This document shows, piece after piece, positions 41,917 through 42,913 of a stretch of 64,000 bases of DNA. Made by a program: the position numbers and the translations under genes. Each line of letters opens with the position of its first letter. The stretch's first letter is position 1. The stretch lies in sequence record PQ356294.1. The stretch is one strand, 5' to 3'. The notes under the pieces were generated by a model. That model was not told where the DNA came from. It ran no database searches and saw only the letters and a program-made list of their open reading frames with translations. The DNA comes from Escherichia phage Ec_YwIITB1.

Positions 41917-41992
41917 TGGTCGAGGCAGTAGGGATCGAACCTACGACCTAGGACTTAGAAGGTCCTTGCTCTTCCTTCTGAGCTATGCCTCG
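41917..41992 (-). tRNA. tRNA-Arg (anticodon UCU)
   Basis: Manual cloverleaf: acceptor CGAGGCA/UGCCUCG, loop CUUCUAA, T-loop UUCGAUC, CCA encoded. Confidence 0.8.
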
Positions 41993-42047
41993 AACCCATG
42001 ACTACGAGAATCACAATCTCGAGTTCTACCAACTGAACTACGGCCAC
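41993..42047 (-). pseudogene. 3'-truncated tRNA-His-like gene (GUG anticodon arm intact) fused to the tRNA-Arg 5' end
   Basis: Acceptor 5' strand, D-arm and CGAGA-UUGUGAU-UCUCG anticodon arm present; T-arm 3' half and acceptor 3' strand absent. Confidence 0.5.
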
Positions 42048-42141
42048 ATTAATACCTACTCCAACAATCAAGATGTCTTCACACGAAATTAAGAGAAGAG
42101 TGATCAGTTCAACCCCTATAATCGCGTCAAGTAGATATTAA

Positions 42142-42157
42142 TGTGACAGTTGTCACA
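42142..42157. repeat. 16 bp near-perfect palindrome tgtgacagttgtcaca
   Basis: Inverted repeat between the tRNA-His remnant and tRNA-Asn. Confidence 0.5.
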
Positions 42158-42161
42158 AATT

Positions 42162-42236
42162 TGGCGGACGTGATAGGATTCGAACCTATAACCAATCGCT
42201 TAACAGGCGATCGCTCTGCCATTGAGCTACACATCC
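42162..42236 (-). tRNA. tRNA-Asn (anticodon GUU)
   Basis: Manual cloverleaf: acceptor GGAUGUG/CACGUCC, loop CUGUUAA, CCA encoded. Confidence 0.75.
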
Positions 42237-42240
42237 AAAT

Positions 42241-42327
42241 TGGTGGGGAGTGGTGGAGTCGAACCACCCGAGTCGCAATGACAATGGATTTACAGTCCAC
42301 ACCGCTACCTCTACGGGATAACTCCCC
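42241..42327 (-). tRNA. tRNA-Tyr (anticodon GUA), class II with long variable arm
   Basis: Manual cloverleaf: acceptor GGGGAGU/ACUCCCC, loop CUGUAAA, T-arm GGUGG-UUCGACU-CCACC, CCA encoded. Confidence 0.7.
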
Positions 42328-42340
42328 TTAATTCTTAATT

Positions 42341-42415
42341 TGGTGGCCCTGGGTGGAATTGAACCACCATCTGGCGATTATGAGTCGCTTGCTTGAACCT
42401 TCCAGCTACAGGGCC
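42341..42415 (-). tRNA. tRNA-Ile/Met type (anticodon CAU)
   Basis: Manual cloverleaf: acceptor GGCCCUG/CAGGGCC, loop CUCAUAA, CCA encoded. Confidence 0.75.
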
Positions 42416-42416
42416 T

Positions 42417-42492
42417 TGGTGCTGATTGACGGAATTGAACCGCCGACCTTCCCATTACAAGTGAGTTGCTCTACCTACTGAGCTAAATCAGC
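42417..42492 (-). tRNA. tRNA-Thr (anticodon UGU)
   Basis: Manual cloverleaf, loop CUUGUAA, CCA encoded. Confidence 0.8.
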
Positions 42493-42497
42493 AAAAC

Positions 42498-42587
42498 TGG
42501 CGGAGGCGATAGGATTTGAACCTATGAGTCGCCGGAGCGACTGCCGGTTTTCAAGACCGGTGCATTAAACCACTCTGCCACGCCTCC
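42498..42587 (-). tRNA. tRNA-Ser (anticodon UGA), long variable arm
   Basis: Manual cloverleaf: acceptor GGAGGCG/CGCCUCC, loop CUUGAAA, CCA encoded. Confidence 0.8.
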
Positions 42588-42589
42588 AG

Positions 42590-42663
42590 TCTCCATACAA
42601 GGATTTGAACCTTGGACCTCCTGATCCCAAATCAGGCGCTCTACCAAACTGAGCTACACGGAG
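42590..42663 (-). tRNA. tRNA-Pro (anticodon UGG)
   Basis: Manual cloverleaf, loop UUUGGGA; CCA not encoded. Confidence 0.8.
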
Positions 42664-42673
42664 TAAATTAAAT

Positions 42674-42747
42674 TGGAGCGGATAATGAGAATCGAACTCA
42701 CATCATCAGATTGGAAGTCTGAGGTAATACCATTATACGATATCCGC
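42674..42747 (-). tRNA. tRNA-Gly (anticodon UCC)
   Basis: Manual cloverleaf: acceptor GCGGAUA/UAUCCGC, loop CUUCCAA, CCA encoded. Confidence 0.8.
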
Positions 42748-42752
42748 AAATT

Positions 42753-42839
42753 TGGTGCGAGAAGTGGGACTCGAACCCACAAGGAAATCATTCCGCAGCA
42801 TTTTAAGTGCTGTGCCTTTACCAATTTGACCATTCTCGC
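42753..42839 (-). tRNA. tRNA-Leu (anticodon UAA), long variable arm
   Basis: Manual cloverleaf: acceptor GCGAGAA/UUCUCGC, loop CUUAAAA, CCA encoded. Confidence 0.8.
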
Positions 42840-42840
42840 G

Positions 42841-42913
42841 CTGGGAATAAAGGACTCGAACCTTTGCATCCTGGAATCAAAATCCAGTGCCTTACCAACT
42901 TGGCTAATTCCCA
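42841..42913 (-). tRNA. tRNA-Gln (anticodon UUG)
   Basis: Manual cloverleaf: acceptor UGGGAAU/AUUCCCA, loop UUUUGAU; CCA not encoded. Confidence 0.8.

Follow-up and report, generated by a model that had tools for sequence, protein, structure and literature searches.

A probable T2-type tRNA cluster with a truncated tRNA-His gene and an overlooked structured RNA in Escherichia phage Ec_YwIITB1

Results and discussion

Organization of the tRNA cluster

Escherichia phage Ec_YwIITB1 carries, within the 64,000-nucleotide (nt) stretch analysed here (sequence record PQ356294.1; hereafter the window), a cluster of ten intact tRNA genes on the minus strand at positions 41917-42913, as detected with ARAGORN and Rfam. 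Read along that strand, the genes for tRNA-Gln, -Leu, -Gly, -Pro, -Ser and -Thr, a CAU tRNA, tRNA-Tyr and tRNA-Asn are followed by a conserved structured RNA element, the remnant of a tRNA-His gene, tRNA-Arg and homologues of the small stable RNA genes rnaD and rnaC of phage T4. The window was assigned to the genus Tequatrovirus, its best match over 20 kb being Shigella phage pSs-1 (NC_025829; ~97%). The cluster is bordered by the trna.2-4/ipI genes on one side and the e.x genes on the other and occupies the same strand as in T4; its flanks align at 94-99% with those of T4, pSs-1 and phage FriedrichZschokke (Bas41, MZ501067). The phage collection that we searched comprised 50,697 records; 1140 phage records match the tRNA region, nearly all of them T4-like. 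What the present analysis adds to the description of such loci is a corrected map, in which the T4 counterpart of the Tyr-Asn interval is segB and not a set of small RNAs, a unique tRNA-His pseudogene, and a structured RNA that has been overlooked.

An earlier note on this DNA had placed ten tRNAs here by manual folding, and the ARAGORN calls coincide with its coordinates exactly. When scored against the Rfam family RF00005 (gathering cut-off 29 bits), all ten reach the gathering score, nine of them at 59-74 bits (E 1e-11 to 1e-15). The first gene, tRNA-Gln (UUG; 42840..42913; 67.4 bits), has no encoded CCA and abuts tRNA-Leu; it is identical to its T4 counterpart at 66 of 74 positions and to those of FriedrichZschokke and pSs-1 at all 74. 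The ARAGORN calls tRNA-Leu (UAA; 42753..42839; 59.3 bits) and tRNA-Gly (UCC; 42674..42747; 65.8 bits) match T4 at 87/87 and 74/74 positions. tRNA-Pro (UGG; 42589..42663; 66.8 bits; 75/75 against T4) stands 1 nt from tRNA-Ser (UGA; 42498..42587; 62.6 bits; 87/90), and tRNA-Thr (UGU; 42417..42492; 67.6 bits; 71/76) 1 nt from the CAU tRNA (42341..42415; 59.9 bits), most likely a tRNA-Ile2, which agrees with T4 at 47 of 75 positions and with FriedrichZschokke at all 75.

The Tyr and Asn models, whose acceptance by tRNA software had been proposed as a check, were both recovered. tRNA-Tyr (GUA; 42241..42327) forms a sound cloverleaf and is identical to the T6 gene at 86 of 87 positions; its Rfam score (30.3 bits) lies near the cut-off because it has a long variable arm, as is expected for tRNAs of this type. 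tRNA-Asn (GUU; 42162..42236) scores 74.1 bits. A gap of 169 nt, occupied by the structured RNA and the tRNA-His remnant, separates it from the last gene, tRNA-Arg (UCU; 41917..41992; 68.1 bits), an intact cloverleaf that is identical to pSs-1 at 76/76 positions and to T4 at 48/76, and whose acceptor stem is perfectly paired (CGAGGCA/UGCCUCG, with A3:U70).

Comparison with the T4 locus

The shared genes keep the order of T4 (Gln-Leu-Gly-Pro-Ser-Thr-CAU ... Arg-rnaD-rnaC), at the same position and with the same tight pairs. The T4-like spacing of Gln-Leu (0-1 nt), Pro-Ser (1 nt) and Thr-CAU (1 nt), to which the earlier note had pointed, was borne out. Sequence similarity is less uniform: tRNA-Leu, -Gly and -Pro are 100% identical to T4 and tRNA-Ser, -Thr and -Gln 89-97%, yet the CAU and Arg genes represent different alleles, both of them 97-100% identical to T2-type relatives.

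The interval between the Ile and Arg genes differs in content. In T4 (NC_000866) it is filled by segB, a 666-bp gene encoding a GIY-YIG homing endonuclease, whereas the window has tRNA-Tyr, tRNA-Asn, the structured element and the tRNA-His remnant; neither segB nor SegB of T4 gave a blastn or tblastn match anywhere in the 64-kb window. The earlier note had set the Tyr and Asn genes in an interval that it took to hold the small stable RNAs of T4, and here the map had to be redrawn. The T4 small RNA genes lie downstream of tRNA-Arg and are kept in the window, where the rnaD homologue (species 2 RNA; 41797..41912, minus strand; blastn 87% over 117 nt) and then the rnaC homologue (species 1 RNA; 41651..41789, minus strand; blastn 97% over 139 nt) come directly after tRNA-Arg. 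According to a covariance model (see below), the T4 locus does not contain the 98-nt structured element.

A gene set shared with segB-less T-even phages

T4 annotation and our comparison agree that T4 has eight tRNAs, with neither Tyr nor Asn, so that the count behind the note's description of the set as expanded (ten against eight) stands. The set is nonetheless ordinary and already known, and the supposition that close reference genomes did not have it fails. The annotations of FriedrichZschokke, ESh26 and PinkRuby list, in sequence, Gln, Leu, Gly, Pro, Ser, Thr, Ile/Met, Tyr, Asn, His and Arg, and 395 GenBank phage records have the Tyr-Asn pair along 80% or more of its length, most of them with annotation. 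pSs-1 has exactly the ten functional tRNAs of the window in the same order, unannotated in its record; its tRNA-Asn stands 4 nt from tRNA-Arg, with neither the structured element nor a tRNA-His remnant between them.

Variation in tRNA number among T-even phages is likewise established. segB is missing from the tRNA regions of T2L, RB1 and RB3, in which genes for tRNA-Met, -Tyr, -Asn and -Arg are present (Brok-Volchanskaya et al. 2008, PMC2330249), and a count from 2010 gives eight tRNAs for T4, nine for T2, seven for T6 and ten each for RB3, RB14, RB18, RB26 and LZ2 (Petrov et al., PMC2993671, Table 2). The range of 7-10 in that table extends to 11 in many newer genomes. A repertoire expanded in this phage specifically, for which the excess of ten tRNAs over the eight of T4 might speak, is thus hardly tenable: the annotation of these genes in hundreds of relatives already refutes that reading, they have been described since 2008-2010, and compared with its closest His-bearing relatives the window has one functional tRNA fewer and none gained. 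The expanded set, as first put forward, carries little weight.

The window shares with the clusters of T2L, RB1 and RB3 and with those of the FriedrichZschokke type the absence of segB and the presence of the CAU, Tyr, Asn and Arg genes after the Gln-to-Thr block. As in the window, T2-type clusters have the species I/II RNA genes downstream, and the tRNA genes are 97-100% identical. The position of the cluster, the gene order through the species 2 and 1 RNAs, the absence of segB and the presence in tRNA-Asn of a sequence that fits the preferred SegB site all place the cluster among the segB-less T2-type loci. T6 is arranged differently; its tRNA-Tyr, near-identical to that of the window, sits in the same cluster, but segB is kept beside it, the CAU tRNA is of the T4 type, and Pro, Ser and Asn are missing from the stretch examined. 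A separate difference concerns ESh26 and PinkRuby, in which a 351-nt open reading frame (ORF) lies between tRNA-Arg and rnaD (positions 1813-2163 of comparison loci L002 and L003); it occurs neither in the window nor in FriedrichZschokke, and it explains the length difference of ~390 bp in most BLAST matches.

Predicted SegB recognition sites

The SegB target in tRNA genes is GGTTCRANTCC...CCAR, with the cut falling immediately after CCAR; its preferred site, in tRNA-Asn of T2L, differs from a minor site in tRNA-Ser at positions 6, 16, 18, 26 and 27 (PMC2330249). In the window, the 3' part of tRNA-Asn (42186-42160, minus strand) contains the 27-mer GGTTCGAATCCTATCACGTCCGCCAAA, which differs from the corresponding 27-mer of tRNA-Ser (42496-42522, a minor SegB-type site) exactly at G6, A16, G18, A26 and A27. 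Since the Asn 27-mer fits the preferred site of T2L, the cluster has the features of a typical, natural recipient allele for SegB homing, and from its sequence we predict that it should be excluded in co-infection with T4.

A truncated tRNA-His gene

Positions 41990..42047 (minus strand) hold a tRNA-His (GUG) pseudogene which, aligned to intact genes, comprises tRNA positions 1-58. In FriedrichZschokke, ESh26 and PinkRuby tRNA-His is intact and lies 4-7 nt upstream of tRNA-Arg (the comparison gene used here lies at L001:1898-1973), whereas the window is 25 nt shorter at this place. The missing nucleotides correspond to the 3' half of the T loop, the 3' strand of the T stem, the 3' strand of the acceptor stem, the CCA and the spacer, and the last three bases of the remnant (CGA) coincide with bases 1-3 of tRNA-Arg. 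In Rfam the remnant gives a 3'-truncated match of 32.1 bits, against a full-length match of 65.1 bits for the intact FriedrichZschokke gene. tRNA-Arg itself is unharmed by the deletion, its acceptor stem being identical to that of the pSs-1 allele.

ARAGORN made an eleventh call at this place, a 'tRNA-His GUG' at 41976-42048 that overlaps tRNA-Arg by 17 nt. We considered a functional overlapping tRNA-His and ruled it out on account of the mismatched acceptor and T stems that result when Arg bases are borrowed, the truncated-only Rfam match and the alignment to relatives.

Position 3 of tRNA-Arg is A in the window and G in FriedrichZschokke, ESh26 and PinkRuby; all His-bearing loci inspected have G3, and every inspected His-less locus with this Arg allele has A3. 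If the ancestor had a pSs-1-type A3 allele, a direct CGA repeat (TTCGA...TTACGA) flanks the deletion, which suggests that slippage or microhomology-mediated joining may have produced it. A putative ancestor of this kind, with an intact tRNA-His followed by an A3-type tRNA-Arg, had no match, and segment-wise identities, compared for a recombination between His-bearing and pSs-1-like loci and for a simple deletion, show the region to be finely mosaic.

The deletion junction had no match as a 36-mer in the phage collection or as a 32-mer in IMG/VR, JGI metagenomes and GTDB genomes. Either it is unique to this sequence or, less likely, it reflects a sequence error. A sequencing or assembly artefact, behind which a genome with eleven intact tRNAs would stand, could draw on this absence from all four collections and on the repeated T-loop motifs of tRNA clusters. 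We regard it as improbable, given that the repeat at the junction, of only 3-8 nt, is too short for an assembler error, that after the deletion the Arg acceptor stem is still perfectly paired and the same as in pSs-1, and that tRNA-His is also missing independently in a metagenome contig (L024, 1800-2030, almost the whole gene), in Salmonella phage STP4-a (L018:330-620) and in pSs-1 (L006:9915-10097), so that its loss is biologically common. The structured element is kept in the first two of these loci and was lost together with tRNA-His in pSs-1.

Cleavage by a SegB-type enzyme offers another route to the same scar. Intact tRNA-His genes of relatives carry GGTTCGACTCCCATCGGTCACCCCAAT, which matches the SegB consensus, and the deletion covers site positions 8-27 plus 5 nt and spans the predicted cut; moreover, microhomology rearrangements linked to SegB have been documented at the T6 locus (PMC13096335). 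The deletion would then be a repair scar left by cleavage at tRNA-His during co-infection with a segB-bearing phage, and the truncated gene a cleavage-resistant allele. We consider this unlikely, as the preferred site in tRNA-Asn is intact, leaving the cluster a target, and as replication slippage between the CGA repeats would explain the deletion equally well; cleavage at the His site is itself a prediction.

In Tequatrovirus, Jiaodavirus and Karamvirus, the phage tRNA-His genes have T and not G at position -1 and C73 as discriminator base; the -1/+1 junction lies at L001:1973-1974, L013:1298-1299, L014:1301-1302 and, in the window, at 42047-42048. Histidyl-tRNA synthetase of E. coli depends on an encoded G-1, and weak charging of a phage tRNA-His that has no G-1 might be behind the repeated loss of the gene. 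The truncation in the window, as one more independent loss of tRNA-His, fits both this property of the phage gene and the low demand for His codons reported below.

A further observation concerns tRNA-Arg(UCU) in the His-bearing loci. Beside an intact tRNA-His, it has G2:C71, G3:U70, G4:C69 and A73 in every such locus inspected (for example L001:1887-1893 with 1822-1828, and also L002, L003 and L008). These four features form the classical alanine identity set. The window and the His-less loci with the same Arg allele have A3:U70 in place of G3:U70.

A conserved structured RNA between tRNA-Asn and the tRNA-His remnant

The 113-nt spacer that follows tRNA-Asn folds at -32.4 kcal/mol (z -3.4). 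A small hairpin (GUGACA-ACU-GUCAC; 42142-42157, minus strand) stands directly after tRNA-Asn; STP4-a has it with another loop, and the versions of Jiaodavirus and Karamvirus do not have it. The hairpin precedes a 98-nt element (42047..42144, minus strand) that folds into a three-way junction with a closing helix of 15 bp, the last pair of which uses position +1 of tRNA-His. Phages of Jiaodavirus, Karamvirus, Gelderlandvirus and Roskildevirus have homologues (about 80-89% identity) immediately upstream of tRNA-His, and one Vequintavirinae phage has a homologue upstream of tRNA-Gln, so that the element spans at least six phage genera. Sequence comparison located homologues at L013:1202-1299, L014:1205-1302, L018:410-506 and L019:405-501, and further ones at L020:386-482, L021:332-441 and L024:1906-2002. 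The element was found in 359 GenBank records, of which 60 rows were sampled; not one of these annotates it.

The consensus fold was derived with RNAalifold, and covariation was evaluated on 11 distinct sequences. In the resulting alignment 95.7% of cells are paired, as against 34-49% when the partners are slid, and 12 pairs show compensatory double changes, as against 1-4 in the slid controls; not one of 500 shuffles reached any of the five measures. The 3' hairpin has a conserved apical 7-nt loop (YCWUGAU) above a stem in which one position is occupied by five pair types. A covariance model built on the element scores 116 bits on the minus strand, that of the tRNAs, and 17 bits on the plus strand; with it, a single copy was located in the window, and the loci of T4, T6 and pSs-1 gave none. 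Against the covariance models of Rfam 15 the element gave only noise matches (E >0.5), and a literature search for the element or for small RNAs of T4-like tRNA clusters returned nothing relevant, while one by tRNA isotype turned up mostly papers on mitochondrial genomes. No likeness to rnaC or rnaD is visible in the T4 alignment, the two not having been compared with the element directly. The element has good support as a structured RNA and has been passed over by genome annotations and Rfam alike.

The element persists where no functional tRNA-His follows it: in the window, in contig L024 and in STP4-a, where tRNA-His is damaged or lost, and in phage A5-4, where tRNA-Gln follows. This persistence speaks for an independent role. 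The simplest conjecture is a small RNA that would be cut out, in the manner of T4 species 1 and 2, as the tRNAs are processed. On the strength of the comparative evidence, we put at about even the chances that the element represents a small structured RNA, not described before, of tRNA clusters of the T-even type, co-transcribed with the tRNAs, excised along with them and endowed with a function of its own.

Identity of the CAU tRNA

ARAGORN labelled the CAU tRNA as Met. Almost all E. coli genomes (5424 of 5426) have a full-length best match to it, at roughly 70-82% identity, and in the 12 rows sampled these matches are without exception annotated as tRNA-Ile; the identical gene of FriedrichZschokke is annotated tRNA-Ile/ATA. 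Codon use agrees with an Ile2 identity, ATA being used at 5.1 times and ATG at 0.81 times its E. coli frequency. The CAU tRNA is thus most likely a tRNA-Ile2, predicted to read AUA after lysidine modification, rather than a tRNA-Met, and the sampled E. coli matches and the FriedrichZschokke annotation favour the label Ile(CAU), which the earlier note had used, over Met.

Proposed roles in codon supply and replenishment of cleaved tRNAs

Codon use was compared between 80 ORFs of the window and 42 annotated coding sequences of E. coli K-12 and expressed as the ratio of the phage to the E. coli frequency. The codons of all ten intact tRNAs are 1.36-9.2 times commoner in the window ORFs: AGA 9.2x, ATA 5.1x, TCA 3.8x, GGA 3.6x, ACA 3.3x, TTA 2.7x, Tyr codons 1.76x, Asn codons 1.57x, CAA 1.55x and CCA 1.36x. 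His codons, at 0.68x, show no such excess, and the broken gene is the only one of the cluster without it.

The evidence as a whole leads us to regard the locus as very probably a standard segB-less, T2-type Tequatrovirus cluster from which one tRNA has been lost, and whose tRNAs would serve codon supply and the replenishment of tRNAs cleaved by host defences. The whole would form one minus-strand unit (Gln-Leu-Gly-Pro-Ser-Thr-Ile2(CAU)-Tyr-Asn, structured RNA, dead tRNA-His, Arg, rnaD, rnaC and terminator), the precursor of which, by analogy with T4, would be processed by RNase P and 3' trimming enzymes of the host to yield ten mature tRNAs and the small stable RNAs. The tRNAs would raise the capacity to decode codons that are much commoner in the AT-rich phage than in E. 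coli and would replenish those destroyed by host defences, while the 25-nt deletion would have taken the 3' third of tRNA-His and left a perfect acceptor stem in tRNA-Arg. It weighs against this reading that the codon comparison takes ORFs of at least 80 amino acids as a proxy for genes and sets them against only 42 E. coli coding sequences, and that the deletion is known from one assembled sequence, no second record with it having been found.

A reading in which defence, more than decoding, accounts for the extra tRNAs draws on their identities. Colicin E5 cleaves exactly the tRNAs for Tyr, His, Asn and Asp, and tRNA-Tyr (GUA), tRNA-Asn (GUU) and the tRNA-His (GUG) of relatives all fall within the GUN-anticodon group that is the established target of nucleases of this type. 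T6 tRNA-Tyr has been detected in infected cells by northern blot and tRNA-fragment sequencing; its overexpression weakens the Septu defence system, T6 escape mutants amplify it, and T4, which has no tRNA-Tyr, cannot escape (PMC13096335). Through its near-identity with that gene, at 86 of 87 positions, the tRNA-Tyr of the window belongs to a type now known to counter Septu. According to work cited in PMC13096335, T5 tRNA-Tyr neutralises retron-Eco7. It is conceivable, though we lean against it, that the extra tRNAs are maintained chiefly for counter-defence, as spares that replace host tRNAs lost to cleavage by tRNA-targeting immunity or by anticodon nucleases of the colicin type. Tyr and Asn codons are 1.6-1.8 times over-represented, so demand alone could explain both genes; Septu also cleaves the phage tRNA-Tyr of T6 (PMC13096335), which implies protection by dosage and not by resistance; and the support concerns tRNA-Tyr, with none for tRNA-Asn. 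We thus retain the combined reading, codon supply together with replenishment.

Predicted transcription signals

A promoter scan of the cluster yielded no convincing internal promoter; its sole plus-strand match, in antisense orientation to the cluster, covers the 5' end of tRNA-Asn together with the spacer next to it. The tRNA and small-RNA unit ends at 41577..41600 (minus strand) in a terminator-like hairpin with a 10-bp stem, of which seven pairs are G-C, followed by TTTTT.

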